Below, in pieces: positions 7,696 to 56,381 of a DNA stretch of 64,000 bases (its first letter is position 1; each line of letters opens with the position of its first letter). The position numbers and the translations under genes are program-made. The notes under the pieces are model-generated. The model was not told the origin of the DNA, ran no database searches, and saw only the letters and a program-made list of their open reading frames with translations. This DNA comes from Anaerolineales bacterium (lineage in GTDB: Bacteria; Chloroflexota; Anaerolineae; Anaerolineales; E44-bin32): positions 6,651 through 70,650 of the forward strand of contig DAOUEQ010000012.1 of assembly GCA_034430395.1 (NCBI GenBank). Direction: 5' to 3'.

Positions 7696-7805
7696 ATCCA
7701 TGGGTCGACCTACGCCCTGATGTTACAACAGCCTCCGCCTTGGTAATATCAGTTGCTGCCCCACCAGAGCGCGCCCAAGCCAAACCCACATGAGAGAGCA
7801 ACCCC

Positions 7806-8357
7806 ATGTCAGAATTTCCGGTCCTCCATACCGAACGGCTCATCCTTCGGGCTTTCCAGATGGATGATGCACCCGCCGTACAGACGTATGTATCAAAAAA
7901 AGAAATCGCTGCTACCACATTGAATATCCCTCACCCTTACACTTTGGAGATGGCCGAGGAATGGATTGCGACACACAGAGATGCTTTTAATAACGGACAG
8001 GCGGTTCGTTTTGCGATCACGTTAAGAGATGGCGGGAGACTGGTCGGCGCGATCGGACTCGAGATCACAGCAGCGCATGAGAGGGCTGAGTTAGGCTACT
8101 GGATCGGAACACCTCATTGGGGCAAAGGGTACTGCACCGAAGCCGCGATAGCCGTGCTTCAGTATGGATTCGATTCCCTTGAGCTTGAACGGATATTCGC
8201 CACGCACTTTCACAAGAATCCCGCCTCCGGTCGAGTCATGCAGAAAGCGGGCATGAAACACGAAGGTCGGTTGAGACACCATATTAAGAAATGGGGGAAG
8301 TCTGAGGATCTGGAAATGTACTCGATCCTGAGGTCAAAAACGGGACGTGGTCACTAA
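7806..8357 (+). CDS. GNAT family N-acetyltransferase (RimJ/RimL-like)
   Basis: TERLILRAF...DA..., then GAIGLE....ELGYWIGTPHWGKGYCTEA is a typical RimJ-type acetyl-CoA binding core. Confidence 0.8.
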   Translation: MSEFPVLHTERLILRAFQMDDAPAVQTYVSKKEIAATTLNIPHPYTLEMAEEWIATHRDAFNNGQAVRFAITLRDGGRLVGAIGLEITAAHERAELGYWIGTPHWGKGYCTEAAIAVLQYGFDSLELERIFATHFHKNPASGRVMQKAGMKHEGRLRHHIKKWGKSEDLEMYSILRSKTGRGH

Positions 8358-8536
8358 ATAGATTTTTGTCTCAAGCGGGCAATCCCATCTGCTTGCTCCC
8401 CCTTTTTTTTAACTAACTGAACAGTCTCGATCCCAACAATATTCCGCGGAAAGGTCTGCAGCTTGCTCTAGATACGGCTCCTTTAAATACAACTCTTTCG
8501 ACTAACCCTCTGGGCTGCACACCCACTTTGTCAAGC

Positions 8537-41228: not shown

Positions 41229-42134
41229 CTATAAGTGGAACCCGCCCCAGGTTCCGGTCAAAGTATAACGCAACAAATCGATCAACCCAATCTGAAGCAA
41301 ACCAAGCATCAATCCCGCTGCGATCGGGACGATCAGATCGCGCCAGGTGTGTGCCTTCTGTGTTCTGCGCAGGAGCGGGATCGTGATCAGCGTGTACGCT
41401 AGCGCAAGAAGCAGCAGAACCCCGAGGCTGCTCAACAGAGCCAAAGGATAAAGCAGAAGCGGATTCTCGGTCAACACAGCCACGTCAACAACGCCAGCAA
41501 AAGCCAGCAGCACGATCAGTTCGCGCGGCGAGCGCAAGATCCGCTCTGCTTTCCAGTCTTTCCATGCGTATTGGCTGAAAACGGGGTAGACCAGCGTCAC
41601 GAGCGCAACCCCAACCAGGCTGCCGGTGAATAAGCGCAGGGTGTTGTGAGGTGTGTAGAGCCGCATCGCCGAGGGAAGCATTGAGAGGAAGGAATTCACC
41701 CCATCCACAACCCAGGTCAGCCCTAGCACAATGACTGCCGCCAGCACGCCCCCGGTTGGAAAGAGGCTGGCTTTCGTACGCCGAAGCGCGTAATAAGCAA
41801 AAGCGACCAACGCTCCCAGAAACATCCCCGTGCAGCGCGCGCAGAGCGGGAGCGGTCGTGCTCCCAGATGGAAGGAGCGCAGGTCGATTCGATGACAAAC
41901 CGCATAGCCGACGGCATCTGCCTTCCCTAGGAGTCCATCTGGGGTGTAGTCCAACCACAACCCAGCCACGAGCGCCGTTAGGGCGAACACAATCGCATTC
42001 GCCAGGCGGTTTCGCCGGATGCTCTTCAAAGAAGTTACGCTTTCGCTGGTCACGCGGTGATTATAATCGAGCGCGGGTGGGATTGAGGGTCCAGGGGGAC
42101 ACCACTGCGGTTGATATGCCTTCTTGACGGGCAA
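41229..42134 (-). CDS. DUF2085 family membrane protein (start uncertain)
   Basis: CHRIDLRSFHLGARPLPLCARCTGMFLG is the DUF2085 Cys motif. A TTG start at 42134 would overlap the tRNA promoter. The alternative GTG 42053 is preceded by TATAAT on the minus strand. Confidence 0.6.
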   Translation of the reverse strand: MPVKKAYQPQWCPPGPSIPPALDYNHRVTSESVTSLKSIRRNRLANAIVFALTALVAGLWLDYTPDGLLGKADAVGYAVCHRIDLRSFHLGARPLPLCARCTGMFLGALVAFAYYALRRTKASLFPTGGVLAAVIVLGLTWVVDGVNSFLSMLPSAMRLYTPHNTLRLFTGSLVGVALVTLVYPVFSQYAWKDWKAERILRSPRELIVLLAFAGVVDVAVLTENPLLLYPLALLSSLGVLLLLALAYTLITIPLLRRTQKAHTWRDLIVPIAAGLMLGLLQIGLIDLLRYTLTGTWGGFHL

Positions 42135-42153
42135 AAACAGGGACGGTTATAAT
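42124..42153 (+). promoter_or_regulatory. sigma-70-type promoter candidate for tRNA-Asn
   Basis: TTGACG (42124-29), an 18-nt spacer, then TATAAT (42148-53). The tRNA 5' end is 11 nt downstream. Confidence 0.55.
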
Positions 42154-42163
42154 CCCTGCACGT

Positions 42164-42236
42164 TCCTCGGTAGCTCAATCGGCAGAGCAACCGGCTGTTA
42201 ACCGGTAGGTTAGTGGTTCGAGTCCACTCCGAGGAG
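42164..42236 (+). tRNA. tRNA-Asn (anticodon GTT)
   Basis: Hand-folded cloverleaf. Acceptor is TCCTCGG/CCGAGGA and D stem is GCTC/GAGC. The anticodon stem is ACCGG/CCGGT with loop CTGTTAA. The T arm is AGTGG-TTCGAGT-CCACT, and the discriminator is G. CCA is not encoded. Confidence 0.95.
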
Positions 42237-42241
42237 CCTTT
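42205..42241 (+). repeat. att-type direct repeat copy 1 (3' 32 nt of tRNA-Asn plus 5 nt)
   Basis: GTAGGTTAGTGGTTCGAGTCCACTCCGAGGAGCCTTT is identical to 48271..48307. Confidence 0.85.
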
Positions 42242-42592
42242 GGTCAATCCACACGTCCGCATTCTGGCTTAAAGAAACAGTAGTCTCTATATAGAAACAC
42301 AAGGGCTTTTAGGCCCAATGGGAACAGGTTCGATTCCTGTCCAGGCCCTAATGTTGCCTCCTCGTTCCCACACAACTAAGTGTTGATTCTCCGTATGGCG
42401 CACCTCGTCATAAGGTTCTTATCCTTTATAGGCAGCGGGATTTTTACATGCAATATATCGACTCGAGAAAACCACAATTAGAAATATCTTTACCTAACCC
42501 ATGGTACATTTGTGGTTTCCAATAAATGATGCTAAAAAACAACCTCGGATCCTTTAACTCAACGTTTCGTTAATTGATTGAGGAGGGCTCGC

Positions 42593-42763
42593 ATGAAATT
42601 ATCTGCACCCAAAAAAAATACTTGGTGGATTGCGCTGATTGTCGGATTGGCCGGGATTCTTGGTAACTTCGTGACAATACCATTTATAAGTGATTACGCT
42701 TTCTGGTTTGTCGTGGTTGGTTTTGTGCTGCTTGCCCTGGCAACATATCTCAAGGATCTCTAG
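42593..42763 (+). CDS. small two-TM membrane protein
   Basis: GGAGGG lies 7 nt before ATG 42593. MKLSAPKKNTWWIALIVGLAGILGNF...FWFVVVGFVLLALATYL. It is followed by a canonical terminator. Confidence 0.5.
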   Translation: MKLSAPKKNTWWIALIVGLAGILGNFVTIPFISDYAFWFVVVGFVLLALATYLKDL

Positions 42764-42780
42764 CCTTCTGTACGCATAGA

Positions 42781-42811
42781 GGCGGAGTAAGGGTCCGGCT
42801 CCGCCTTTTTT
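42781..42811 (+). terminator. rho-independent terminator
   Basis: GGCGGAG-11 nt-CTCCGCC is followed by TTTTTT. Confidence 0.75.
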
Positions 42812-43063
42812 CCAAGAAGCTATGTTTAACAAAGTCTTACAAACTCAGAATACGCCTTTTTTTTAACTCGGAACGGGATATTTAAAGCTTCGGATATTAC
42901 TCTTGGAACCAGATTGCTACCTCGGTCACATAAGGGCTTGTAATCCCATTGTTACAAAGCACATCCCTGAGACCCAGGGATGTTTCTTTAGATACGGCTC
43001 TTATCGAAAAATTGTTGCCAATTTTTCTTTCCAAACAATATCGAATAACATACGCTCAGCACA

Positions 43064-43602
43064 TTGAATCAATCATTTGCTACGGATCATCTAATAATGA
43101 ATAGACACTCAGAACATTCCTCATATCGCGAAAAACTCATTGAGCATCTATTTATCGGTGAATTACTAAAGCTCTCTTGGCAAAAGGGAGATTGTCAACT
43201 CGAGGTATCAAAACCTGAGTTTGATAACTCCGGATACGATGTCGTCGCAGAGTCGAATGGGATCATTAGACATATCAGGTAAAGGCATCATACATCGGAG
43301 GAAAAACCAACCGCCAGAAAGTTCAAGTAAAACTTGCAGAAAAACCATCTGGTTGTGTTATCTGGGTGTACTTCAATGAGGATACCCTTGAATTAGGTCC
43401 ATTTTACTTTTTCGGTGGCAATCCCGGAGAACCGCTTCCTGATCTAGAAGGATCAAAGATTGCCCGACATACTAAAGGGGATCAGTTTGGTACCAAAGCA
43501 GAGCGCCCGAATATCAGAGAGTTAAATAAGGGTATGTTTACTCTCTATGAGTCAATTGATGATGTTTACAATGTGCTGTTCCAAATCAATTCAGAGATAT
43601 GA
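43064..43602 (+). pseudogene. frameshifted PD-(D/E)xK nuclease-like gene (DUF4365-like)
   Basis: The frame-2 ORF ends ...GYDVVAESNGIIRHIR*. The frame-1 continuation reads (Q)VKASYIGGK...SGCVIWVYFNEDTLELGPFYFFGG. One missing nt at about 43077-43078 would restore D-x(n)-(E/Q)-V-K. Confidence 0.5.
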
Positions 43603-43684
43603 TATCCATTGAAAGCGCAAATATTCATTGCAAGTTTAGAGTAGTTCGCAATATTGAGAATTAGCAGCTTAAAAGGACATCCGA

Positions 43685-44305
43685 ATGAATTCCAAAACCA
43701 ATCCAGGTGCTTATGATGTTTTAATGAATCCTAAGGTTGATGTATTTATAAGCAAAGCCAAAAAGTGGCAGGAAGAATTTGAGAAATTGAGAATGATCAT
43801 TCTTGGCTGTCAGCTGACCGAAGAATTGAAGTGGGGTAAACCTAGTTACGCGTTTCAGAAAAGTAACATAGTTTTAATACAAGGATTTAAAGAATACTGT
43901 GCGCTTATGTTTTTCAAAGGTTCCTTGTTAAAGGATGACAAAGGTATTCTAATCACACAAACGGAGAATGTGCAGGCGGCGCGCCAGATTCGGTTCACCA
44001 ATGTTCGAGAAATTGTTGAGATGGAACCCATCTTGAAGGCCTATATTTATGAAGCCATTGAAGTGGAAAAAGCCGGTTTGAAAGTGAATTATAAAAAGCC
44101 TTCAGAATTCAAAATTGCTGAAGAATTTCAAAATAAATTAGATGAAATCCCTGCCTTGAAGACTGCTTTTGATGCATTGACGCCAGGACGGCAAAGAGCA
44201 TACCTTCTTTATTTTTCTGCACCCAAACAATCCAAAACTCGGGAGTCAAGGGTTGAAAAATGCATGCAGCAAATTCTCAATGGAAAGGGATTAAATGATC
44301 GGTAG
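43685..44305 (+). CDS. DUF1801 (YdhG-like) plus YdeI/OmdA C-terminal domain protein
   Basis: ...KWGKPSYAF.KSNIVLIQGFKEYCALMFFKG is DUF1801-like. ...LTPGRQRAYLLYFSAPKQSKTRESRVEK is the YdeI-type tail. Confidence 0.65.
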   Translation: MNSKTNPGAYDVLMNPKVDVFISKAKKWQEEFEKLRMIILGCQLTEELKWGKPSYAFQKSNIVLIQGFKEYCALMFFKGSLLKDDKGILITQTENVQAARQIRFTNVREIVEMEPILKAYIYEAIEVEKAGLKVNYKKPSEFKIAEEFQNKLDEIPALKTAFDALTPGRQRAYLLYFSAPKQSKTRESRVEKCMQQILNGKGLNDR

Positions 44306-44352
44306 CTTCGATGAGAAAATAAATTGATCAAACTTTAAGATAAACCCTCACT

Positions 44353-44535
44353 TTGCGTTCTTTCGAATCTATTGATAATAAGTACGTGCAACCAATGAAT
44401 TTCTGGTTTGATCAGCTGAAGCAAGTCGCTGACAAAAAGCAAATGGAGCAGGTTGCATTTCCAAATGAGAACGTCGGGATGGGCCATGGGCATGCCAACG
44501 CGGTTGTGTCTTATACAAGAGGAGTATGTGGCTAA
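44353..44535 (+). CDS. possible DUF4287-like fragment
   Basis: The only recognisable piece is GMGHGHANAVV. It starts at TTG and overlaps the next gene by 10 nt. It may be a remnant. Confidence 0.3.
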   Translation: MRSFESIDNKYVQPMNFWFDQLKQVADKKQMEQVAFPNENVGMGHGHANAVVSYTRGVCG

Positions 44536-44891
44536 TGGCTGCTAAGAAATTTGAAACCGTGGATCAGTATCTTGCCAGCCTTGATGAGACTAAGCGCAAG
44601 ACGATGAGCGAAATCCTGAACCTAATTACTTCAGAATTCCCAGAGTTGGAAGTCAAGATTGCCTGGAATACCCCAATGCTTCACACCCAGGGCAAATATA
44701 TTGTGGGCCTGGCCGCCTATAAGAATCATCTGTCTTTCGCGCCTTGGAGTGCAGTTGTTATTGAGAGCTTTGCCACGCGTCTTTCTGATTACGTAACCAA
44801 AAAAAACCTATTCCAGATTCCGGTTGATTGGCAAATAGACGTTTCGCTTGTGTGTGACTTAGTTTCCGCGAGATTGGCAGAAGTCCAGTAG
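44526..44891 (+). CDS. DUF1801 (YdhG-like) domain protein
   Basis: FETVDQYLASLDETKRKTMSEILNLI...EVKIAWNTPML...GKYIVGLAAYKNHLSFAPWS is the typical YdhG-like pattern. Confidence 0.65.
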   Translation: MWLMAAKKFETVDQYLASLDETKRKTMSEILNLITSEFPELEVKIAWNTPMLHTQGKYIVGLAAYKNHLSFAPWSAVVIESFATRLSDYVTKKNLFQIPVDWQIDVSLVCDLVSARLAEVQ

Positions 44892-45199
44892 GAAGATTGC
44901 CAGCACCTAACGTCTCGCTGGAGGCAGTTAGGTTATATCAAGATTTTGTATACGAATAGGACTATCACCTCTGTCCGGTGGATTAACAGCCTACATTCGT
45001 CTCAGACACCAGGGCTTTTAAGCCCCATGTGAATAGCAGATCCCGCATATCGCGGGATTTGTGTTTTGATAAGGGCTCTTATCGAAAAAAATTTTAATAT
45101 TCTTCTTTTCCCTCTTTTTAGAATATCGTCTGAGGTAGTTTTCTTGATATTCAATTGTTATGCGGAATGATAGATCATGAAAAAAGTATCTGTTTCGGT

Positions 45200-47665
45200 T
45201 CAGGCTTTTATTCTCTCCATTTTGGGATCATACATTGGATTGAGGGAAACCACAGCCGGATAGATCTTTCCGGCGATATTCACTTCCCATTTCCCGCTGG
45301 ACACATACTCTTCATCAATAGGCCGATCAGCGTTAATTTTAAACAGCCCTGCGGCGCCGCCTAAAGTAAATGCGTAAGAACCTGATGTAACATAGCCTGT
45401 CGGTTTACCGTCCCGCAGGACTATTTCGGCGTGGAAAAGGAAGGGTTCCGGATCCTTAATCAGAACCTGGGCCAACCGCTTTGTCTTATCGTCCTCCTGC
45501 TTAATCTTGATGCAGGCCTGTTTACCAATAAAATCATCCTCTTTTTTCAGCTTTACAAACATTCCCAGACCGGCCTCATAGGCGTTATCTGTATTGTCCA
45601 TATCATGGCCATAATCACGGTAGCCTTTTTCCATCCTCAGGCTGTTCAGGGCTTTTAGGCCGGCGTGCCGAAGGTCAAACTGTTTTCCCGCCTCGACGAT
45701 AAAATCATATACATGGATAGCATGCTCGGTGGGTATATAAAGTTCGTAACCGAGCTCTCCCACATAGGAGATTCTGATACACAATACGCGGGCATAACCA
45801 ATTTCGATTTCCTGGACGTGCCGGTAGGGAAAAGCTTGGTTGGACATGTCGGCGGTTGTCAGCGCCTGCATCAACTTACGGGAATTGGGCCCAAGAATAT
45901 TCAGCTGACTGTAGGCTGAGGTCATGTCGGTTACAAAACAATGGGCCTCTTCTAGAATATTTCGCTTGAGCCAAGTTTCAGCATGCCGGTGCATGGTATC
46001 AGCAACCACAACCATAAATTTGTCTTCCTTGAGCTTGGTTACAGTAAGATCTGCCTCCAGAGTCCCGCGATGGTTAAGCCACTGGGTGTAGGTAATCTGA
46101 TTTACCTTGGCATTTACCTCGTTGGCCGATATATAGTTCAGGACCTTACCAGCGTCCCGCCCCTGGACCATGAAATTTGACATAAATGACATGTCCATCA
46201 TAACAACATTTTCACGGGCGGCCTTATGTTCCGCTTCCCAGAAAGGAAACCAGTTTTCCCTTCCCCAGGCATGTTTTTCAACTTTCGCTTCCCGGCCCTC
46301 TGGCGCATACCAGTCCGCCCCTTCCCATCCGCTGACATCTTTAAAGTAAGCGCCGTGGGCGGCCAGCCGGTCAAAGAAGGGTGGCTTTTTCGCTCCTCTG
46401 GCGGTCTTTAAGGTTTTATACGGATAATGGCATTGATATGCCAATCCTAATGATTCAACGGTTCTGTCTCTGCGGTATTGGGGATTGTTCTGAAAGGTGT
46501 GAAGCCTGTCAATGTTAAAACCGGTAATATCCACATCCGGATTGCCGTTTATTATCCAATAGGCCATCAGGCGGCCCAGTCCGCCGCCTATGATGATCCC
46601 GATTGAGTTAAGGCCGGCAGCAACAAAATAATTCTTTACCTCCGGGGCCTCGCCGACAATCGGCGCAAAATCAGCCGTAAAACTCTCCGGACCGCAAAAG
46701 AAAGTTTTAATGCCGGATTCCAGAGTGATTGGCACCCGGGACATGGCTTTTTCAACAAAGGGCTCCATCCTATCCCAGTCGGGAGTGATTTCACCAAAAG
46801 AAAAAGTATTGGGAATACCATCTACATGCCAGGGAGCGCAGACCGGTTCAAACAACCCGACCATAATACCCCCAACCTCTTCACGATAGTACCCGTAGTG
46901 GGAGGGGTCTTCAAGAATGGGCATATTGGGAGGCAGATCTTTTATTTGTTCTGTAATGACATAATAGTGTTCAGCCGCCTGGTTCGGGATATTAACACCT
47001 GAAACATCACCAAGCTGCCTGGCCCACATACCAGCGCAATTCACTACATATTCAGCCTGGATATCACCCTGCAGTGTCTTAACCCCGGTTACATGCCCGT
47101 TTTTCTTATATGTGCCCGTGGCGGTAACTCCTTCCATAATCCTGGCCCCTTTCATTCGGGCGCCCTTAGCAATTGCCATGGTTGCGTCAACCGGGTTCAC
47201 TGTTCCGTCATCCTTTACATAAAACCCCGCCAACAGATCATCGACCTTGGCCAGAGGAAAAAGCTCTTTAATCTCGTTAGGGGAAATTTCCTGAACATCC
47301 ACTCCGCAATAGCGGTTAAAGGCAGCTACGCGCCGGTATTCTTCCAGGCGGTCTTTATCAGCTGCGGCTTCAATGAACCCAATCGGTTTAAATCCTGTGG
47401 ACAAACCTGTTTCAGCTTCCAGGCTGCAGTAGAGGTCGCGGGTATATTTTCTCATTGCCGTGTTGACTTCAGAAGATGAGCCAAAGGTGCACATTAAACC
47501 GGCTGCATGCCAGGTAGTGCCTGAGGTCAGCTGGTCCCGTTCAATAAGGACCACATCTTTGAGACCCATGTCAGCCAAATGATAAGCCACCGAACAGCCG
47601 ATCACACCGCCTCCAATGATGACTACTTGAGCATGTTGAGGAACACTATTGTTTTTTTCTTGCAT
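45200..47665 (-). CDS. FAD-dependent dimethylglycine/sarcosine dehydrogenase-like oxidoreductase fused to a GcvT (aminomethyltransferase) folate-binding domain
   Basis: VVIIGGGVIGCSVAYHLA is the DAO-type GxGxxG motif, followed by TSGTTWHAAGL. The C-terminal 400 aa are GcvT-like (GYELYIP...LRMEKGYR..G.D). The start is placed at ATG 47665 (MQEKNN...). Confidence 0.85.
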   Translation of the reverse strand: MQEKNNSVPQHAQVVIIGGGVIGCSVAYHLADMGLKDVVLIERDQLTSGTTWHAAGLMCTFGSSSEVNTAMRKYTRDLYCSLEAETGLSTGFKPIGFIEAAADKDRLEEYRRVAAFNRYCGVDVQEISPNEIKELFPLAKVDDLLAGFYVKDDGTVNPVDATMAIAKGARMKGARIMEGVTATGTYKKNGHVTGVKTLQGDIQAEYVVNCAGMWARQLGDVSGVNIPNQAAEHYYVITEQIKDLPPNMPILEDPSHYGYYREEVGGIMVGLFEPVCAPWHVDGIPNTFSFGEITPDWDRMEPFVEKAMSRVPITLESGIKTFFCGPESFTADFAPIVGEAPEVKNYFVAAGLNSIGIIIGGGLGRLMAYWIINGNPDVDITGFNIDRLHTFQNNPQYRRDRTVESLGLAYQCHYPYKTLKTARGAKKPPFFDRLAAHGAYFKDVSGWEGADWYAPEGREAKVEKHAWGRENWFPFWEAEHKAARENVVMMDMSFMSNFMVQGRDAGKVLNYISANEVNAKVNQITYTQWLNHRGTLEADLTVTKLKEDKFMVVVADTMHRHAETWLKRNILEEAHCFVTDMTSAYSQLNILGPNSRKLMQALTTADMSNQAFPYRHVQEIEIGYARVLCIRISYVGELGYELYIPTEHAIHVYDFIVEAGKQFDLRHAGLKALNSLRMEKGYRDYGHDMDNTDNAYEAGLGMFVKLKKEDDFIGKQACIKIKQEDDKTKRLAQVLIKDPEPFLFHAEIVLRDGKPTGYVTSGSYAFTLGGAAGLFKINADRPIDEEYVSSGKWEVNIAGKIYPAVVSLNPMYDPKMERIKA

Positions 47666-47950
47666 TGGATTTCCTTCTTTGGAATTTACGGATAGGGATT
47701 TTAATTGTCCAATCATCAAAAAATCAATTTAGCCCCGACCCCTGGATAAAGCAAGCGCAAGTCCAGCTAACCGAAGCCGAAAGCAAGCTTGAAGGAGCAT
47801 AGCGACGCCCAATCACCTAATTCTCGCAAAAGTTGTGCTTCTGGTAGAAGCACCTTGCCTGGTGCACAAAGGGAAACCTTAAAATAAATAACCAATAAAC
47901 GTAAATTTTAGACCGACGTCAATTAAAAAACGCCGGTAAGTACGGATTAA

Positions 47951-48172
47951 TCAGAAATAATCCCCTTCTAACAATTCCAATTCCCGGCTAGGCGACCCGC
48001 GCTGTTGCCTTTCTATCCAGAGCCCACAGTGCCGTAAGATTTTCTCAATAACGTCCTTCTGTTCTCTTTCGACAAAGGAGACAATCCGCATCTTATCCCC
48101 ACAATCCGGGCACTTGTGTTCGGGGACGGTGTTCGGTGATGAAGACCGACCCTTCAACGCAATCCTGGGCAA
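47951..48172 (-). mobile_element. IS91-family (Y2) transposase C-terminal remnant
   Basis: HKCPDCGDKMRIVSFVE..QKDVIEKILRHCGLW matches the conserved C-terminal Zn-finger/tail I recall from IS91/ISCR transposases. The catalytic N-terminal roughly 300 aa are absent. Confidence 0.5.
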
Positions 48173-48270
48173 TATCCAACCAAGACACGGATTGCTACGA
48201 AGGGCGGCTTATCCTAAACATTAGACTTCGTCAAAAATCTGTATACGAATAGGAACAACACCTCTATCCC

Positions 48271-48307
48271 GTAGGTTAGTGGTTCGAGTCCACTCCGAGG
48301 AGCCTTT
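48271..48307 (+). repeat. att-type direct repeat copy 2 (tRNA-Asn 3' end)
   Basis: 37/37 identical to 42205..42241. Confidence 0.85.
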
Positions 48308-48639
48308 ATAAGATTTGCGAGGGCGATTCTCATAATTGAATTGCTTTTTTTTTCCAATCTACTCGGGACATTATTGATAATTTGGTTTTTCCCACTATAA
48401 AGTTCGCCTTATTCTATCCTCTGGTTCATCGCTGAAGAATTCTTCGGCCCTCCGAGTACGTAGATCTATAACATTCACCTTCACATCAGCTCCCTCTAAT
48501 CGACTGTAAATTCAGTCTGTTTTTACCTCCCTTATGTATATAACGGATAATTGATGTGCGCGGACACAAAAAAGAGGAAACTCTGAACGAGCGGGGGTGG
48601 TAAAGCTAGTGATAGGCTTCCCCGGCTTTCCGGGTTGCG

Positions 48640-50079
48640 TTATGCCAGCTGTAATATCAAGGCTGCGATATCAGTTATATAAAAGGCGATCAGTCCCATG
48701 GAGAGTATCATGATGATCATGCTTACCATCCTCTGCCACCTTCCTGACAGAGCAAGGATTGATTCTACTGCCCTACTAAAAAGCACAAGGTAGGACAGCA
48801 AACCCGGGAAGATGAAGATTGCCTTTATCACAGAATGATCCCGGTAGATCAGAGCGTAAAATATCAAGAAAAGTATATAACCGAAGAATACCAGTGAGGA
48901 CAAGCCAAAGTCTGCTTTTCTGACCTGACCACCATCCCTAGTAACAAGACCCAATAGTAACAACCTAAGTTCGATACAAGCGCCAAGAAGTACGATGAAA
49001 GTAGGGGGGATTGCGAGAAGAAGAATCGCTCGTGACAGTGGGAAGAGATTGCTATCACTCGTTGACCAGGTCGAAGGCCAGTTATCGAAATGGATCGAGT
49101 GAGCGCGGCCGTAAAGCAAGGACCAGAACGACGTCTGGAACGGGGGTATCTTCTCTTCATCAAATTCTACGCGGGGATGTTGCATGAGCTCCCCGAAGCG
49201 AAACGTCAAAAAGCCATCTGTGACCGAAAGAATACCCGGTCTGGTAATGGTGGTCCTTGTGAATAGATGAGGGAGTGGTTGAGCAGGTAGGTTGGTAACG
49301 ATCGGTGAACGATACTCTTGAAGGTTGGGGATGTATTGGTTCAAGGGACTGAGTACAGCAATAATGGTGATGCTGGCAGAAAAGAAAATCACCTGCTGAC
49401 TATATTTCCTGCGCTGCTCTCGACCGGTCCAGGCCATTACTTCTAGGCAAATAAAAATTGCAATGGCAGTTACCAAAACATTCGTCTTCGAAGAAATGCC
49501 TAGACTTACCGAAGTAAGGATAATCAGTAAGGCTTTTGTATTTGGTTTTCGTAGGAAATCGTAGGTGTAATATAGGCCGAGAGTTGAAAAGAAGACTGCA
49601 AAGGAATCATTTGTCGCTTGAGCGTGGATCGCCGTCAAGGGGGGATTCAGGGCAAACAAGCTGAATAGGATAAGCTGTTTCCAATTATCTAATCGCATGC
49701 GCCTCACGAAACGCCAGACCAGAACCAGCGTGGAAGTGCCTGCTGCAAAGCTCAATAACTGACCGATGATGTTCAATTTAGATGGGGGAAGGTGGGCAAG
49801 ACCTAGGATTTGTATAAATTTTGCGAAAACAACATGGTACAGCTTAGGTTGGAAGCACTCCCAGCAATCTGATTTTAATGGAAGAGAGCCCGCTTCAATG
49901 ATCACCATAGCGACATCCCAGTGCGGGTCGTTTGCCTCGCGGTTAATGATTGCCAGAGCTAGCCGAAGGCATATGGCGAGGATAAACAAGGCCAAAAAGA
50001 GTATTCGAGTACTTTTATTTCCGATCACTGCATATTCACGGCGGGATGATGGTATGAAGTTGATGACTTCCTCAGACAT
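48640..50079 (-). CDS. polytopic membrane protein, GT-C fold glycosyltransferase-like (GT39/ArnT-like)
   Basis: 479 aa with 10 or more TM segments. The first extracytoplasmic loop has an acidic motif (REANDPHWD) and ...FQPKLYH, reminiscent of ArnT/PMT families. Low GC. Confidence 0.45.
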   Translation of the reverse strand: MSEEVINFIPSSRREYAVIGNKSTRILFLALFILAICLRLALAIINREANDPHWDVAMVIIEAGSLPLKSDCWECFQPKLYHVVFAKFIQILGLAHLPPSKLNIIGQLLSFAAGTSTLVLVWRFVRRMRLDNWKQLILFSLFALNPPLTAIHAQATNDSFAVFFSTLGLYYTYDFLRKPNTKALLIILTSVSLGISSKTNVLVTAIAIFICLEVMAWTGREQRRKYSQQVIFFSASITIIAVLSPLNQYIPNLQEYRSPIVTNLPAQPLPHLFTRTTITRPGILSVTDGFLTFRFGELMQHPRVEFDEEKIPPFQTSFWSLLYGRAHSIHFDNWPSTWSTSDSNLFPLSRAILLLAIPPTFIVLLGACIELRLLLLGLVTRDGGQVRKADFGLSSLVFFGYILFLIFYALIYRDHSVIKAIFIFPGLLSYLVLFSRAVESILALSGRWQRMVSMIIMILSMGLIAFYITDIAALILQLA

Positions 50080-50483
50080 AGGATCAGTCCTCTTTTAATA
50101 CATACCTATCAAGATTTGGCTGGATCCTACATCATCAGGGAGCTTATCATACGGAAATCGATAGGCAGATAACGGGGTGGTATGGACTTGCCGAAAAGCT
50201 TGATCACCAAAATGCGAAATACCCTTCCTAAAAAGGCGTGCCTATCGCTTTTCATATATGTCCTTTCCTGTTGTTTGAATGTTTCCAGTTGGCAATCCTG
50301 GTCTGCGCCCCCAGTTTCATCATCCCTGGAATCTTAATTCGTAGGATCTTAGGGAAGGATACACTATAATCCAGGACCTGTCCGATTTTAATGCATACAT
50401 TCGGATGGGATTGTTGAGCTCAGTGGAGTGGATGGTTAACTCCATCAAGAACTTGTGTACGATAAGGAATTCCCCCTTGTGCA

Positions 50484-50518
50484 GTAGGTTAGTGGTTCGA
50501 GACCACTCCGAGGAGCCT
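50484..50518 (+). repeat. att-type direct repeat copy 3 (tRNA-Asn 3' end, 1 mismatch)
   Basis: GTAGGTTAGTGGTTCGAGaCCACTCCGAGGAGCCT has a single T>A change at 50502. GC composition returns to core values just downstream. Confidence 0.8.
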
Positions 50519-50716
50519 GGTGCCAGGCATCAGGGTGTATCCCAAGCAGGAATGCGCCCTTTCTCTGTGCCCCATTTCATCAAAGTCCGGAATGAGATGG
50601 TCCCGTTATGCATACGCTAAACTCGATTAGATCAATATAATATCGAACACTTGAAGCGCCCGGGATACAACGCTGCACGAAGCTCGACACCGATAGGCAA
50701 CCTGAGGTAATTCTCG

Positions 50717-51235
50717 ATGTTACGGAAAAGGGATTTACTCTGGATACTCGCATACCCGATCTACCAGATCATTGGCACCTTTCGACACGAAGGAAGTCAC
50801 GCACTTGTTGCGCTGCTGCAAGGCGCCAGGGTCACTGAATTTGTGTTTTGGCCGTCTCTTACGAAATATGGTTTTTATTGGGGTTACGTTCGAATTACCG
50901 GCTCGACCGACTGGGTATTCTATGCCGCTCCCTACCTGGTTGATCTGATAACATTTACCATCTTCTTCATTATTTGTATGTGGTTGTTGATCCGCAAAAA
51001 ATGGATTTGGCTCAACCTTGTGATCATTGGCTTGATATCGCCGTTCGCGAACTCCCTTTATAACTACTGGGGCAACGCAGGATCAAGCAACGACGTAGGG
51101 AAGTTGTTGGAAGTACTGCCAACCAATGCCGTTCATGTGTATTTCTTGCTGACCTTGCCGATCTACATCCTGGGTATCTTCATGGTATTCAGGTCTTCCA
51201 GGACAGCACGCTTCATGAAGACCCGCACGGTTTGA
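50717..51235 (+). CDS. membrane protein with HExxH motif (M50B/DUF3267-like putative zinc peptidase)
   Basis: FRHEGSHALVA contains HExxH near the N-terminus, followed by 3-4 TM helices. Confidence 0.45.
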   Translation: MLRKRDLLWILAYPIYQIIGTFRHEGSHALVALLQGARVTEFVFWPSLTKYGFYWGYVRITGSTDWVFYAAPYLVDLITFTIFFIICMWLLIRKKWIWLNLVIIGLISPFANSLYNYWGNAGSSNDVGKLLEVLPTNAVHVYFLLTLPIYILGIFMVFRSSRTARFMKTRTV

Positions 51236-51378
51236 AATCCATGATTAACCATTGCTGCACTTCGCGGAACACTCATCCGCAATGGAACTCTTTTTAAGCA
51301 AGGGGCGAGGGCGACTCTCGGAATTGGAACTTCAGTGTACGCAGACTACAAACCACTCAAAGACAATGGAGGATCTCA

Positions 51379-52056
51379 ATGGCACAAGCAGGAATACACG
51401 GCATGGTTGCTATGGCAGTGCGCAAATGGACTCCAAGTCGGAAATGGCTAATGCTCGGCATTGTTCTCGGCAACATCCTTCCTGATGCCGACAATATCGC
51501 CGTAGCCATCGCCACATTAACCGGAAAATCTACGGAAGGACTACACCGAACCTTTACCCACAGCCTTTTCTTTGTCGCCGCAATCATCCTCCTGGGCTAC
51601 ATCGTGGCCGCTATTACCAAGCGCTCCACATGGAGCAACATGGGGGTTGGATTAGGTGTAGGGGTATTAATGCATATCCTGATTGACCTGTTGATCTGGT
51701 TCAATGGTGTAGAAATCCTATGGCCGATTCCCTCTTGGATCAACTTCTGGGGTGGTGTCACCCCTCCGGAGTGGTGGAGCAAGTTGATGATGCCGACCGA
51801 GTTTCTGTTTTTCGCTCTGCTTTTTCTCTTGTTCGCAAAACTTGCTCGCAAACAGAGCACGGATACGGACTACTTACGTACGCTCTCCATATGGACCTAT
51901 ATCCAGCTTTTTCTTTTTGCAGTCTTTACCGTGCTGGTCTACACAATGCAGAAAGGGTTCATGACTCCCTATGGTGCAATCTATCTTCTGTCCCTTGGGC
52001 TCGCCTTTGCAGTGACAATTAGAATGCGTGAGACGATAGAAACTGCCAAGCAATAA
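51379..52056 (+). CDS. membrane-bound metal-dependent hydrolase (DUF457/YdjM-like)
   Basis: His-rich TM pattern (GIHGM..., LPDADN, HRTFTHS, HILIDL) typical of DUF457. Confidence 0.55.
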   Translation: MAQAGIHGMVAMAVRKWTPSRKWLMLGIVLGNILPDADNIAVAIATLTGKSTEGLHRTFTHSLFFVAAIILLGYIVAAITKRSTWSNMGVGLGVGVLMHILIDLLIWFNGVEILWPIPSWINFWGGVTPPEWWSKLMMPTEFLFFALLFLLFAKLARKQSTDTDYLRTLSIWTYIQLFLFAVFTVLVYTMQKGFMTPYGAIYLLSLGLAFAVTIRMRETIETAKQ

Positions 52057-52082
52057 AGAGGCGGATCATCGCCGATCCGCCT
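52057..52082. terminator. bidirectional terminator hairpin between convergent genes
   Basis: GAGGCGGATC-ATCGCC-GATCCGCCTC is a perfect 10-bp stem. On the minus strand it is followed by TTTATT. Confidence 0.55.
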
Positions 52083-52116
52083 CTCCCATTAAGTTCAGCC
52101 AATACCTGGAGATAAA

Positions 52117-54327
52117 TTAACTCAATTCCTTCAGTAAGCTGCGCACTTCGGACGGATCCGAGAGAAAGAATCGAGCCTTCGACCGCTCGGGGACACCAAC
52201 CTTCACTGTCCAACCCGGATCAGGGACCACTTCGAAGAGCGCCTCATCGGTAACATCATCGCCAACCGCCAAGATGAAATCATACGGTGGTTTCGCGGAC
52301 AGCCATGGATGTGCCGCCCGCCCCTTGCTTACGGTGCTCGGTTTCACCTCTACCACTTTATGCCCCTGCAAGATGTGCAGTGATGTGTTGGCAATATACC
52401 CTTCGATGGTATCGATCAACTCAGCGGCACGCTGAGAACCCAGGCCGGGGTCAGAGCGACGGTAATGCCACACCAGCGCCGCTCCTTTCTCTTCCAAGAG
52501 AGCACCAGGGGTGCGATCGACGAACATTTCAAATACCGGCCTTAATTGCTCCTTCCAATCGTCTGTGAACTCATCATCAACCTGCTCCCACTGGTTCTGG
52601 TCGGCATAGCGGACCATCCCTCCGTGTTCAGCAACGAGATCCATTCCCACCTCACCCAGCCAGGCATTGAGAGTCTCCACATCTCGACCGCTGATTACAA
52701 CCATCGTGTTTTTTGGATCACGTGCGAGCGGCGTCAGCACTGCGATTAATTCCTCGTCAGGTTTAGCCTTCTTTGGAGTGGAAGCGAATGGGACAAGCGT
52801 CCCGTCGTAGTCAAGAAGGAGCAAACGGCGTTCCGAGTCATCATATGCTTGAACTAACGCCTGTTTCAGTTCCCCCTGTAGGCGCTTGGGAAGGTGGAGT
52901 CTGCGCACCTCCTGCACCCTGGCAAGCTGGCTCAGGAAATCATCTGCCCAACGTTCCGTATCATAGCGGCGAAGCCGGGCACGCATGGTCGCGTTGCGCG
53001 CCTCTTGTTCCTCAACGGGCATTTCCAGGGCTTGATGCAGAGCGTCCACGAGCATTTCTTCATCGTGCGGGTTGACAATGATCGCTTCACCCAATTCCGC
53101 CGCTGCACCGGCTGTTTCACTCAGGACGAGAACACCCGTCCCATCCGGTCGTGAGATGAGATACTCCTTCGCCACTAGATTCATCCCGTCCCTCAAGGGT
53201 GTGACCAGAGTGACATCCGCCATGAGATATAGCGCAATAAGCTGCTCAAAAGGAACTGATCGGTAGAGATAGGTGATCGGCACCCAGCCAGGTTGGCTGA
53301 ACCGCCCATTGATACGTCCGATTAACTCATCGACCTGGCTTTTTAGATTCTGATACTCCGGGACTCGCGTTCGCGAGGGGACCAACAACGACAGCAAGGT
53401 CACGCGCCCTAACCAGTCCGGATGGCGAGAGAGAAATTCAGCAAAGGCGTTTAGACGCTGGATAATGCCCTTCGAGAAGTCCAACCGATCTACGGTGAGA
53501 ACAATCTTGCGCTCCCCGACTTGCTGGCGCAACGCTTCAAGTTCATGTTTGACTTCCGGCCTTTCGTGGGCGGTGCTATAGCGGTTAATGTCCACACCAA
53601 GCGGGAAGGTATCTACTTTAATGGAACGATCGCCAACGGTTACTCGACCAAAGTCTTGCTCCAATCCCTGGATGCGCAGCAAACTGCTCAGGAAGTGTCG
53701 TGCGTAATCATAGGTATGAAAACCAATCAGATCCGACCCAATTAAACCCTTGAGAATCTCCTCTCTCCAGGGGAGCATTCGGAAAATCTCATACGATGGA
53801 AAGGGTATGTGCAGGAAAAATCCGATTGCCGCATCCGGTAGTGATTCGCGTAACATGGCGGGCAACAACAGCAGGTGGTAATCGTGAACCCAGATTTTGT
53901 CACCGGGGAGGATAACCTCGAGGACTTTCTCACAAAATCGCGCATTCACATCCTGGTATGCCTGCCATTCCACATGATCGTAATGTGCATATTGTGGGAA
54001 ATAGTGAAAGAGCGGCCATATTGACCCGTTCGAGAAGCCGTTATAGTAGAGATCGAATTGCTTCCTTGGCAGGAAAATCGGAACGCTGCCGAACTCCTCG
54101 GACAATCTCTCGTTGATTTTCGCCTGCAGTTTAGGGTTATCCTCGTGAATTCCTGGCGCCCCCAGCCAGAGCATATCCATCTCCTCCCGCACTGCATTCA
54201 GAGCCGTCGCCAGGCCACCAACACTGGGATTATAGAGGTATCCACCGTCATCTCGTTCCAGGCTAACAGGAAGACGATTGGATACCACGATCAACCGCTG
54301 TAACCTATCATCGGTTTTAGCATGCAT
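52117..54327 (-). CDS. bifunctional trehalose-6-phosphate synthase (GT20) / trehalose-6-phosphate phosphatase (HAD) fusion
   Basis: LIVVSNRLPV...GGLA... is GT20 OtsA-like. The C-terminal LLLLDYDGTLVP...GDDVTDE is the HAD motif I/IV, OtsB-like. The start is placed at ATG 54327 (MHAKTDD...), and the ORF opens at 54423. Confidence 0.85.
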   Translation of the reverse strand: MHAKTDDRLQRLIVVSNRLPVSLERDDGGYLYNPSVGGLATALNAVREEMDMLWLGAPGIHEDNPKLQAKINERLSEEFGSVPIFLPRKQFDLYYNGFSNGSIWPLFHYFPQYAHYDHVEWQAYQDVNARFCEKVLEVILPGDKIWVHDYHLLLLPAMLRESLPDAAIGFFLHIPFPSYEIFRMLPWREEILKGLIGSDLIGFHTYDYARHFLSSLLRIQGLEQDFGRVTVGDRSIKVDTFPLGVDINRYSTAHERPEVKHELEALRQQVGERKIVLTVDRLDFSKGIIQRLNAFAEFLSRHPDWLGRVTLLSLLVPSRTRVPEYQNLKSQVDELIGRINGRFSQPGWVPITYLYRSVPFEQLIALYLMADVTLVTPLRDGMNLVAKEYLISRPDGTGVLVLSETAGAAAELGEAIIVNPHDEEMLVDALHQALEMPVEEQEARNATMRARLRRYDTERWADDFLSQLARVQEVRRLHLPKRLQGELKQALVQAYDDSERRLLLLDYDGTLVPFASTPKKAKPDEELIAVLTPLARDPKNTMVVISGRDVETLNAWLGEVGMDLVAEHGGMVRYADQNQWEQVDDEFTDDWKEQLRPVFEMFVDRTPGALLEEKGAALVWHYRRSDPGLGSQRAAELIDTIEGYIANTSLHILQGHKVVEVKPSTVSKGRAAHPWLSAKPPYDFILAVGDDVTDEALFEVVPDPGWTVKVGVPERSKARFFLSDPSEVRSLLKELS

Positions 54328-54540
54328 AGAGCACCTACATTCTGACTTGAGTTGCCAAAATCTGGACAGATCGTTTTGAGCGCAGCGAGTGGGAGAGTGC
54401 CTCTTTATTACAGCATAGTTCATTTCGCTGTAGCCAAATAGGATCGAGAATCACACACCGACTACACCGAGAGGTTGGTTTTCTTTCTTCTTTAAAACTC
54501 GATAAAATGTCTACTCTGTCGGGAAGCGTTCCCCGATGGC

Positions 54541-54708
54541 TTATTCTTCCGGACCCTCCCACCAAGGTTGATAACGGCGGACCTTCTCTATCAGTTTCTT
54601 CTTCGTCTTGGTGTCTGTCGCTTCTGCTAAAGCCTTCTTCAATAACTTCACTTTCTTTTGACGGCGTTGTCGGCGCCTTCGTTTGCGATCTTTTTCGGTC
54701 AATGGCAT
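54541..54708 (-). CDS. unannotated 55-aa highly basic small protein
   Basis: It is below the track's 60-aa cutoff. The sequence is MPLTEKDRKRRRRQRRQKKVKLLKKALAEATDTKTKKKLIEKVRRYQPWWEGPEE*. GGAGG lies 9 nt upstream of the ATG. It lies directly upstream of, and co-oriented with, the otsA-otsB fusion gene. Confidence 0.45.
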   Translation of the reverse strand: MPLTEKDRKRRRRQRRQKKVKLLKKALAEATDTKTKKKLIEKVRRYQPWWEGPEE

Positions 54709-55136
54709 TCGTTCCACACCTCCGTTAATGGTTGGATGATGCTTCCTCCAAGCCAGCGTTTATTAAACATATGATAACGCATCTACGATGATAGTATTGG
54801 ATCTTTAAAGCACATCACTTAAAAAGTCCGCCCTTGCTCGCTCATTACCAGCAACTATCCATCGGAAATCCACGGGCCGGCGATGGGTGGGCAATCATGT
54901 CTATTTTTCAAAAACATCTTGTTTCATTCGTGTGACAGTCCCCGATTATTAACCATTTATTAATCGTTTTGTTGTATGATATTCATGGTGGGGAACGGTT
55001 TCTCAGGCATTGTTTGAAGTAACTCCTTTATGAATATCCAACTTCGCCACAAGTAATTATCCCTTCCATTGGTTTTGCATAAAAATCCTGATCCATTTCT
55101 TGTTTATATGGATCATCTTAAGGGCGTGACCTGCGT

Positions 55137-56381
55137 ATGATTAATGAGTTCGAGTTACTCGCAAACAAAGTGATCGAGGCGACAGAAGAGGTATCGCTCT
55201 CGGAAGAAGAGCAATCCTCCATTCAGCAGTTATTCAAGCTCGGGGGAGAACAGGGGTTCATCACCCTGAATGATATTGCCGCTCAATTTCCCGAATCCGA
55301 ATCTTCCCTCCCCGTGATCGAACGCGTCTATGATATGTTACTTAATGCAGGTATTGAAATCCTTGATGACGAAGAAGTATCTGAGAAGAAACCTGCTCTT
55401 CTGCTCAAGGAAGCTGAGGTAGAGAAGGAAAATGAAAACAAGCTCGCCGAGGTAAGTGCGATCGACGCAATTGATTCGGGCGATTCGGTAGGTTTATACC
55501 TAAGCCAGGTAGGCAGAGTGCCTCTGCTCACACGCGATGAAGAAGTTGAACTTGCCAAGCGGATTGAGCGCGGCCGTCGCGTACGCGATAATCTTGCACG
55601 GGGCCCTGTCTCTCCAAAACAACGGGTAAAATTCGAAAGGTTGATTCAAGACGGCATGGCCGCTCGTGAACACCTGATCATGGCTAACTCCCGTCTTGTA
55701 ATCAGTGTAGCTAAGAAATACGTCGGCCGCGGGGTCCCACTTCTCGACATGATCCAGGAAGGTCACGTCGGGTTAATGCGCGCCGTGAAGAAATTCGATT
55801 ACCGACGCGGACACAAATTCTCCACGTATGCCACCTGGTGGATCCGCCAGGCTGTGACAAGGCTGGTCGCAGACCACGGCCGCACCATTCGCATTCCCGT
55901 TCATATGGGCGATCGCATTAACCGCATGCTGCGCAGCCGGCACAAACTAACGCAGGAACTGGGACGTGAACCCGTCAGGGAGGAGCTTGCAGAATGCCTG
56001 GAGGTCTCTCCTCAGGATGTTGACTACATGCTTCGCGTTGCACAGCGCCCGCTCTCCTTGGAAAAACCAACAGAGCAGGAAGGGGACGCCGTAATCGGGG
56101 ATTTTATCGAGGATCTTGACGCCCCAGCACCGGAAGAGATCACCTTACAGGAGATTTTGGAGGATCGAGTGCAGGAGCTGTTAGAAACCCTGCCTCATCG
56201 TGAGGCGCTCGTTCTGCGCTTGCGTTATGGTCTTGAATCCGGGGAAGTGCATACTCTTAAAGAGATCGGCGAGAAGATGGGGATCACGCGCGAACGTGTG
56301 CGACAAATTGAAGCTCAGGCTTTGCGCCGTCTGCGCAATCCGGGCCTACGTAGGGAACTCGTGGATTTCGTGCGTACCTGA
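55137..56381 (+). CDS. rpoD: primary RNA polymerase sigma factor (sigma-70/RpoD/SigA)
   Basis: Region 1.2 is [27 protein letters not shown]. Region 2.4 is [14 protein letters not shown]. Region 4.2 is [27 protein letters not shown]. Confidence 0.9.

Follow-up and report, generated by a model that had tools for sequence, protein, structure and literature searches.

How does a tract of foreign-looking DNA come to be punctuated by copies of the end of a tRNA gene? The question is raised by a 64,000-nt window from the genome of an Anaerolineales bacterium of marine sediment (GenBank assembly GCA_034430395.1, contig DAOUEQ010000012.1, positions 6,651 to 70,650), in which a tRNA-Asn(GTT) gene is followed by a stretch of low GC (guanine plus cytosine) content that contains direct repeats of the 3' end of that gene. 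The answer that is favored here, as probable if well short of certain, is that non-autonomous cassettes accreted at the tRNA through the action of a recombinase supplied in trans and have since decayed and become fixed. Each of the repeats is the tail of a larger conserved unit that begins with an integron-type attC hairpin, and this unit marks a widespread and apparently undescribed family of cassettes.

The tRNA-Asn(GTT) gene is a single call at 42164-42238 (ARAGORN; Rfam tRNA, 70 bits). The 37-mer GTAGGTTAGTGGTTCGAGTCCACTCCGAGGAGCCTTT, made up of the last 34 nt of this gene followed by TTT, occurs perfectly at 42205-42241 and again at 48271-48307, and the tRNA 3' end is found a third time at 50484-50518, with 1 of 35 nt mismatched. 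All copies have the same orientation, and none of 100 shuffles gave any match in the pattern search. The window thus holds direct repeats carrying the 3' end of the target gene, the attL/attR arrangement of a CIME-like element (CIME, cis-mobilizable element). An initial annotation, made from the letters alone, had described these repeats and taken them as the product of tandem site-specific integration at the tRNA 3' end. The repeats are as described, and the integration is supported by relatives, in which synteny breaks at the tRNA and different low-GC inserts follow. The three junctions of that annotation are real, but there are at least four, as repeat analysis turned up another, degenerate one at 44902-45090 that had been missed. 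Copies 2 and 3 are 79% identical over 81 nt, far past the tRNA-derived part. The ~46 nt on their 5' side resemble each other, and this arm recurs at 44938, followed by a truncated tRNA-like piece.

A sharp compositional contrast had also been claimed, with 32-38% GC inside the array and 57-63% outside. The contrast exists but is milder: GC is 0.45 over 42239-50518 (0.41, 0.475 and 0.45 in the successive segments; median of 60-nt lines 0.47), against 0.55 in the 42 kb to the left (line median 0.57). Nor does core composition resume right after copy 3, as had been thought. GC stays at 0.49 over 50519-52100, the 1.6 kb that follow, though synteny with relatives does resume there. Further dips to 0.41-0.46 are seen at 54400-55400, upstream of a gene for an RpoD-like sigma factor, and at 57000-58000, in the region of a DUF4129 gene.

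The unit to which each repeat belongs is ~110-190 nt long and opens with the attC hairpin, after which come a 60-nt block that hardly varies and a core derived from the tRNA. A profile search of the window recovered three units, at 44902-44985, 48197-48278 and 50409-50491 (54, 65 and 23 bits). A scan with the arm motif found it in 38 metagenome contigs, where ~0.5 would be expected by chance, and in two genome contigs, one of which shares its metagenome-assembled genome (MAG) with a tRNA-Asn contig that breaks at the tRNA; in viral contigs the same scan found no instance. When 36 instances were aligned, mean column conservation was 0.92 over the ~55-60 nt that end in ...CACCTCTGTCCGGTAGGTTA, weaker over the next 60-70 nt upstream and absent beyond. 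The unit is conserved over ~110-130 nt only, in varied gene contexts, and all-against-all clustering of the 766 open reading frames (ORFs) of the unit-bearing loci yielded no recurrent neighboring protein.

Tandem arrangement is not peculiar to the window, and arrays of this kind are frequent in the unit-bearing contigs, at tRNA-Asn or tRNA-Lys. In eight further loci, the profile search found two units in the same orientation, 1.1-3.8 kb apart. The complete cassettes between units measure 1.05-3.7 kb, have a GC content of 0.40-0.50 and contain one to three ORFs on the strand of the unit. After ...GGTTA, the units continue in several ways, of which one is the Asn type, one the Lys type and the rest neither. 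In the Asn type, the tRNA-Asn 3' end leads into one of three flanks, namely the flank found after copy 3, the leader found after copy 2 or the flank found after the genuine tRNA, and each of these also follows a genuine tRNA-Asn or opens another cassette. In the Lys type, ACAGCTAAC... leads into the 3' half of tRNA-Lys(UUU) and a terminator. Locus L060, one of the eight, has a real tRNA-Lys immediately upstream of its array. Aligned with this gene, the Lys-type units become identical to it precisely at the anticodon loop (C32), and the identity takes in the same terminator; such an att core is of the classic anticodon-loop type. Leader classes of different kinds are mixed within one array.

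Two simpler identities for the unit were tried and rejected. In the window and ten full-length instances, Rfam at permissive thresholds found only tRNA, and hence no known RNA. As a pseudo-tRNA, arm plus core would have a similar length, but the 5' part is only ~35% identical to tRNA and there is no acceptor pairing. There is a weak D-arm-like resemblance (AGCTCAA).

The 5' half of the unit is read as an attC-type site (RYYYAAC...GTTRRRY) from its features and from one reference alignment. GTTRRRY, corresponding to R', lies 20-22 nt before the invariant block in 32 of the 46 non-redundant units. In at least 15, YTAAC is found as a second core 55-125 nt upstream, and the two cores enclose an imperfect inverted repeat in which instances differ in a compensatory way. 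Seven of ten DNA folds pair both cores and leave an unpaired spacer, a long stem and a variable tip (z -0.5 to -3.6), and the extra unpaired base is on the 5' arm only. The family thus displays the R''/R' cores, spacer, extrahelical bases and variable tip of attC architecture (PMC4889954). The reference, a verified one, was the aadA1 attC, a site of 58-60 nt that begins 4-7 nt past this gene in the R100 class 1 integron and is present in 2,515 plasmids. Four unit hairpins were globally aligned with it, and all scored above the 99th percentile of 500 shuffles (63.5 for the L052 hairpin, where shuffles reached 52 at most). CTAAC, CG..CAGC.GAC and CGTTAGAY are common to them and the aadA1 site. 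This likeness appears only in full-length global alignment; direct BLAST of one hairpin against plasmids gave chance matches only. Clusters of such sites in the same orientation, less than 4 kb apart and with no intI nearby, occur in L036, L056, L060, L062, L067, L068 and L069. What the family does not have is an integron-style boundary, at which the next cassette would begin at the G|TT of R' with nothing conserved in between. Instead, every R' is followed by the ~60-nt block and a tRNA-derived segment.

The features of the array and its immediate flanks are as follows.

42124-42153, + strand: promoter-like site of the tRNA-Asn gene, TTGACG-18-TATAAT (consensus scan, 11/12 positions).
42164-42238, + strand: intact tRNA-Asn(GTT), the anchor of the array (ARAGORN, Rfam).
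42239-42275, + strand: 37-nt remnant of a 'type iii' flank (TTTGrTCAmT... plus half of the GCGCATCC/GGATGCGC hairpin); BLAST homology of the relatives stops at 42253-42275.
42297-42350, + strand: fragment like the 3' half of tRNA-Lys(UUU), with a GGGCTTTTAGGCCC stem-loop, T-arm ACAGGTTCGATTCCTGT and acceptor strand (repeat family; 86% match to L027; compared with the real tRNA-Lys of L060).
42578-42763, + strand: small membrane ORF of 61 aa, cargo (ORF list; Pfam/NCBIfam matches sub-threshold; a 56-aa gene in other assemblies).
42928-42990, + strand: second decayed leader remnant, a GGGCTTGTAATCCC stem-loop and then a terminator-like hairpin (42961-42983 plus T run; repeat family, 68% identity; terminator scan).
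43064-43602, + strand: two short ORFs of 72 and 78 aa (faint PDDEXK_5 match, E 0.23; no NCBIfam match).
43685-44305, + strand: YdeI-type protein with DUF1801 and OmdA (Pfam 1.2e-19 and 4.2e-18).
44526-44891, + strand: DUF1801 protein, cargo (Pfam 1.8e-08).
44905-44933, + strand: start of unit 1, a candidate attC-type site with its center deleted; R'' ACCTAAC at 44905-44911, 15 nt, R' GTTAGGT at 44927-44933 (motif analysis).
44913-44915, no strand: site, with TCT on either side, at which L016 and L011 carry a 1,504-nt insertion sequence (IS) of IS110/IS1111 type that the window lacks (mapping of both contigs).
44934-44985, + strand: conserved 60-nt block of unit 1, ending in tRNA-Asn-like CCGGTGGATTA (nhmmer 54 bits, E 3e-15).
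44986-45090, + strand: Lys-type ('B2') leader with a GGGCTTTTAAGCCCC stem-loop, an intrinsic terminator (45036-45062 plus T run) and a GATAAGGGCTCTTATC hairpin (79-82% identity to L032 and L027; terminator scan).
45200-47719, - strand: FAD oxidoreductase fused to a folate-binding aminomethyltransferase, dimethylglycine/sarcosine dehydrogenase-like, cargo of cassette 2 (Pfam DAO 2e-66, GCV_T 2e-72, FAO_M and GCV_T_C; NCBIfam).
47951-48172, - strand: zinc-ribbon ORF of 73 aa (zinc-finger matches, all sub-threshold).
48197-48307, + strand: unit 2, with a decayed attC (R' ATTAGAC, G-to-A), the 60-nt block and the perfect tRNA-Asn 3'-end copy at 48271-48307 (nhmmer 65 bits).
48308-48348, + strand: 'type ii' leader opening cassette 3, ATAAGATTTGCGAGGGCGATTCTC... 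plus a terminator-like hairpin (instance listing; terminator scan).
48640-50079, - strand: GT-C membrane glycosyltransferase (PMT_2), cargo of cassette 3 (Pfam 2.5e-11).
50409-50518, + strand: unit 3, a strongly degenerate unit with the tRNA-Asn 3'-end copy that has one mismatch; right end of the array (nhmmer 23.5 bits, E 1e-5).
50519-52056, + strand: right flank of 'type i' (TGGTGCCAGGCATCAGGGTGTATCCC..., then M50B-like and YdjM genes), GC 0.49, outside the array (BLAST to L002, from 50531, and L006, from 50689).

In the window, a recognizable attC survives only in unit 1, with its central deletion, while units 2 and 3 are without R' and hairpin. The cores of the unit 1 site are perfectly complementary (DNA fold -7.4 kcal/mol, z -3.6), and full-length hairpins homologous to it are found in L045, L033 and others. 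The fourth junction consists of the 44905-44985 segment plus the Lys-type leader at 44986-45090 and amounts to a Lys-type unit minus its T-arm. The fragment at 42297-42350 is likewise read, from its sequence, as the remnant of a Lys-type cassette leader, and the one at 42928-42990 is a further Lys-type remnant. Both Asn-type flanks that border the outer segments are known elsewhere, the 'type iii' flank 3' of tRNA-Asn in relatives L001, L002 and L006 and the 'type ii' leader 3' of Asn-type units in L035, L047, L063 and L067. The GCGAGGGCGAyTCTC motif that opens cassette 3 (48317-48338) recurs with 86% identity at 51305-51326, between the M50B-like and YdjM genes.

The same locus was found in relatives. 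Six Anaerolineales contigs encode the DUF2085 protein of the left flank at 84-88% identity, and in each of them the DNA homology reaches the tRNA. It resumes 11-170 nt past copy 3, at window position 50531 in L002 and 50689 in L006, and the relatives carry a single tRNA-Asn. In place of the window array, L002 and L006 have inserts of 2.4-2.5 kb with a GC content of 0.47-0.48 that encode a PMT_2 glycosyltransferase and a DUF3592 protein. Since synteny breaks at the tRNA and resumes after copy 3, the 3' side of tRNA-Asn is a variable insertion hotspot and copy 3 is the true right border of the window array. In L004, a 292-aa Xer-like tyrosine recombinase lies ~90 nt from the same tRNA, with no unit nearby. 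In L003, the tRNA is directly followed by TCGGACCAGTAATCAGGGT, which resembles the TGGTGCCAGGCATCAGGGT found after copy 3 in the window, but the contig ends there. No second att copy in the relatives was significant. Decayed attR sites were sought in L002, L006 and L004 and rejected, as the best local scores of 16-28 were matched by shuffles of up to 28, while the window copies score 64-68; a match to the att sequence at the L002 junction is suggestive and falls short of significance.

Unrelated glycosyltransferases of the GT-C type (PMT_2 or STT3) recur beside tRNA-Asn or units in different genomes, at 48640-50079 in the window, 3578-5122 in L002, 7624-9174 in L006 and 3258-5360 in L032, and downstream of the unit in L044, L045, L053 and L065. 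The GT-C proteins of L002 and the window have no BLASTP similarity, so that the PMT_2 genes at the equivalent position are unrelated. This looks like the repeated swapping of a cell-surface glycosylation gene at the hotspot. The host range of the family is uncertain, as two bin labels are probably errors: L002 (JAIWHF010000107.1) is labeled 'Methanosarcinales archaeon', yet its bacterial housekeeping genes are ~85% identical to those of the Anaerolineales window, and L027 (JAFDFH010000413.1), which carries the same unit, is a 3-kb scaffold binned as 'Deltaproteobacteria'. In the conserved flank that is common to the window and L006 is a gene for a trehalose-6-phosphate synthase/phosphatase fusion (52117-54423), a 768-aa ORF in the window and 736 aa in other assemblies.

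Exact-protein look-ups found the window array itself, at 99.9-100% identity, in one NCBI MAG, six JGI metagenomes and two Logan assemblies, and several of these contigs run from the tRNA through every cassette into the right flank. The array is not an artefact, because at least nine samples assembled it identically. In GCA_964445415.1 it is split inside the YdeI gene between L007/L017 and L024 (contigs CAYUKV010000011.1 and CAYUKV010000016.1), whose ends map to window positions 43826 and 43880, overlap by ~55 nt and could be joined.

The only polymorphism in this population is the 1,504-nt IS at 44913-44915, present in L016 and L011. Its transposase carries DEDD_Tnp_IS110 and Transposase_20 domains (precomputed Pfam, L011 and L016) and is thus of the DEDD/IS110 type. 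The copy in L016 is 97.3% identical to one in the unrelated contig L040, at the same position of an attC, and both abut the hairpin at ...TTCCAA|TCTCGCTGGAGG, just after R''. The IS is thus inserted site-specifically at the end of an attC. Such insertion has been published for the IS1111-attC elements, a group that includes ISKpn4 and ISPst6 (PMC11187229). The present IS resembles them as a 1.5-kb element with a DEDD transposase that sits at one defined end of the attC-type hairpin, 2-5 nt after the AAC of R''. It would be a parasite of the units and no part of them.

No tyrosine or serine recombinase is encoded in the window array, as had been stated from inspection of its ORFs. Pfam and NCBIfam searches of the ORFs and a six-frame Pfam search of the non-genic DNA found none there, and tblastn with IntI1 and with the Xer-like L004 integrase gave nothing. 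The array contains no integration or transfer genes, as in a CIME-like element, and no conjugation genes were seen. Over the 552 kb of unit-bearing loci, the only trace of a recombinase is a truncated tyrosine recombinase gene with an in-frame stop in L057, which is divergent from the cargo genes that end in the unit and which received the single match, of 38 aa, obtained by tblastn with IntI1. Its full-length relatives are Xer-like and reach 52-77 bits on TIGR02249, for which the cutoff is 265. Homologues of the L004 integrase were not found near units by tblastn over the unit-bearing loci. ORFs that are placed as an integrase might be were also rejected: inspected by eye, they look like genes for an ABC-F ATPase, for an APH-type kinase and for transposases of the IS110 and ISL3 types.

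Two of the loci met in this search have features of their own. In L057, a 1,037-aa cargo protein is encoded between the truncated recombinase gene and the unit (7479-10592); by eye, it has a SIR2-like N-terminus and TPR-like repeats and may be defense-related. In L075 (4746-5921), the gene right after tRNA-Ala(CGC) encodes a tyrosine integrase of 338 aa, and a Prim-Pol gene and cargo for restriction-modification come next; this is a textbook autonomous tRNA-integrated island, in contrast to the integrase-less cassettes.

The following sequence of events would account for the array. The 42239-50518 segment would be the fossil of a tandem array of at least three, and probably four or five, small non-autonomous cassettes at the 3' end of tRNA-Asn(GTT), each with the composite unit at its distal end and, in it, the tRNA sequence copied from ~position 39 through the 3' end. 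Sister cassettes would use tRNA-Lys from the anticodon loop onward as their core. A circular cassette would use its tRNA-derived core to recombine with the same sequence of the genuine tRNA or of a unit already in place, with the crossover probably at ...CCGGTAGG|TTA... The incoming copy would rebuild the tRNA while the older copy is pushed downstream, and repetition of this process would build the array. The recombinase, presumably of the tyrosine type, would be supplied in trans and encoded outside the window. The units would then have decayed and the array become fixed in the host population. All alternative continuations after ...CCGGTAGG start with TT, so that a crossover at G|TT, as in integron sites, would fit. 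The family appears closer to a cassette system than to decayed classical islands, because the repeats are the tails of a larger unit with a predicted integron-type attC hairpin.

Several observations count against this account. No cognate recombinase was found in the window array or the 552 kb of unit-bearing loci, and the relatives of the L057 recombinase sit in integrase plus Prim-Pol elements without units, only one of them (L075) with a tRNA. The crossover was placed solely from the point at which the alternative continuations diverge. In the window, the main genes of cassettes 2 and 3 run opposite to the unit, unlike those of the metagenome cassettes, and the leftmost segment has no clean cassette start, opening instead with the 37 nt of 'type iii' flank; its history therefore involves rearrangement. 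Among the assembled population contigs there was no empty site, partial array or circular junction, and the window units are degenerate, at 54, 65 and 23 bits against 66-89 bits elsewhere. On these two grounds, the window array looks fixed in the population and not currently mobile.

Accretion by a recombinase in trans can be cast in a more specific form, which is put forward tentatively: a previously undescribed tRNA-anchored cassette system of sediment Anaerolineales, a hybrid of integron and tRNA island, in which an attC-type site is fused to a simple site that mimics a tRNA. The 3' part of the Asn or Lys tRNA would serve as an attI-like dock, only cassettes bearing a tRNA 3' end would dock at the tRNA and others at resident units, and a dedicated recombinase would act in trans. 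[quoted passage not shown] Much of what is described above would follow from it: hairpins with attC architecture and significant similarity to a classical attC, arrays in one orientation whose units are spaced less than 4 kb apart and whose ORFs run the same way as the attC, an IS1111-type IS that targets one hairpin end (PMC11187229), continuations that begin with TT as at integron crossover points and leader classes mixed inside one array. Integrons are, moreover, known in Chloroflexi, and CALINs are common (PMC4889954). However, integron cassettes start at R', and an invariant 60 nt plus a tRNA-derived segment after each attC is not predicted; nor can crossover at R' alone make direct repeats of the tRNA 3' end. 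The 552 kb of unit-bearing loci contain no IntI, the 38-aa IntI1 match being to a truncated gene whose relatives fall far below the cutoff of the integron-integrase model.

It is unlikely that the cassettes are formerly autonomous tRNA-integrating islands that each lost their own integrase, with the conserved arms as the shared attP arms of one family. L004 does show an integrase-bearing island at the same tRNA, and accretion in tandem with later decay is well documented, both in CIMEs (PMC5704250) and in the remnants of tycheposons (bioRxiv 10.1101/2020.12.28.424599). Yet that island has no unit nearby, an integrase or its remnant was found inside a cassette in none of ~46 units from 40 loci, the six-frame scan of the window array gave no recombinase fragment, and complete cassettes of 1.05-3.7 kb hold only one to three cargo ORFs. 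Least probable by far is that the repeats are trivial, either misassembled strain variants or the remnants of tandem tRNA-Asn duplicates. Repeats do confuse assemblers, as is seen from the contigs of several relatives and of Logan, which break off at the tRNA or at one of the repeats. However, the whole array is contiguous and nearly identical across different pipelines and samples, the sequence 5' of copies 2 and 3 matches the widespread unit and not the 5' half or promoter of a tRNA, and the single tRNA-Asn of the relatives does not point to duplication.

The cargo of the window agrees largely with its first description. The DUF1801/YdeI-type proteins, the dimethylglycine dehydrogenase (DMGDH)-like protein with its DAO and GCV_T domains, the PMT_2 protein of GT-C type and the small membrane ORF were all recognized again, and with foreign cargo and no integrase, the reading of the segment as decayed or non-autonomous, CIME-like elements gained support. 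The supposed IS91 transposase stump (47951-48172) gave weak zinc-ribbon matches and no transposase family. Where a frameshifted nuclease-like gene had been proposed, the ORF pair at 43064-43602 does look like a pseudogene and is possibly a disrupted nuclease gene, but the PDDEXK_5 match is only a faint trace. By megablast, the YdeI gene and ~60 nt beyond it (43723-44367) share 85-86% nucleotide identity with YdeI genes on plasmids of Metabacillus/Bacillus, a likeness that suggests fairly recent gene flow between Bacillota and the Chloroflexota lineage of the host. Just 5' of the DUF1801 gene, a 46-aa DUF4287-like ORF is called at ~44395-44535 in other assemblies (L013).

Integrons and tRNA-targeting islands are usually seen as two separate routes of gene capture, and here one short unit bears the hallmarks of both, marking integrase-less cassette arrays in abundant but poorly studied sediment bacteria. 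If the two halves of the unit work together, cassettes could be captured at an anchor in an essential gene without destroying it, the 60-nt block would offer a sequence handle for mining cassette cargo from sediment metagenomes, and the family would bear on the origin of attC sites and CALINs. The window itself is more modest, holding a fixed and decayed island whose cargo includes a YdeI gene like those of Bacillaceae, an enzyme resembling DMGDH and a glycosyltransferase of the GT-C type. Within the literature searched, no description of attC sites joined to tRNA cores was found.

Each of the known systems shares some of these features. In Dehalococcoides, also of the Chloroflexota, islands specific for ssrA lie in tandem between direct repeats of the 3' end of this small RNA gene; their target is the tmRNA gene, and they encode their own serine recombinases. 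CIMEs, such as the islands at tRNA-Lys in Streptococcus, also accrete in tandem at tRNA 3' ends (PMC5704250). [quoted passage not shown]

The tycheposons of Prochlorococcus are similar in integrating at tRNAs, in forming back-to-back cargo elements parted by a partial tRNA copy and in building islands as newcomers push older elements inward and degenerate remnants with scattered partial tRNAs accumulate (bioRxiv 10.1101/2020.12.28.424599). Integration at a tRNA with partial-tRNA repeats and tandem stacking is seen in the window as well. Tycheposons differ in that they bring a tyrosine or serine recombinase of their own and, as a rule, a replication module, and neither the window array nor the between-unit cassettes contain an element-encoded recombinase with such a module; no attC-like structure has been reported for tycheposons, which belong to another phylum and habitat. 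CALINs (PMC4889954) share with the present family the R''/R' cores, the unpaired spacer, the extra bases on one arm, the variable tip, the promoter-poor cassettes in one orientation less than 4 kb apart, the lack of a nearby integrase and the targeting of the site by an IS1111-type IS. Here, by contrast, no IntI or attI was found, cassettes are larger than typical and may hold two or three ORFs, and each attC is followed by the 60-nt block and the tRNA core, in arrays that are anchored at a tRNA and bordered by repeats of its 3' end.

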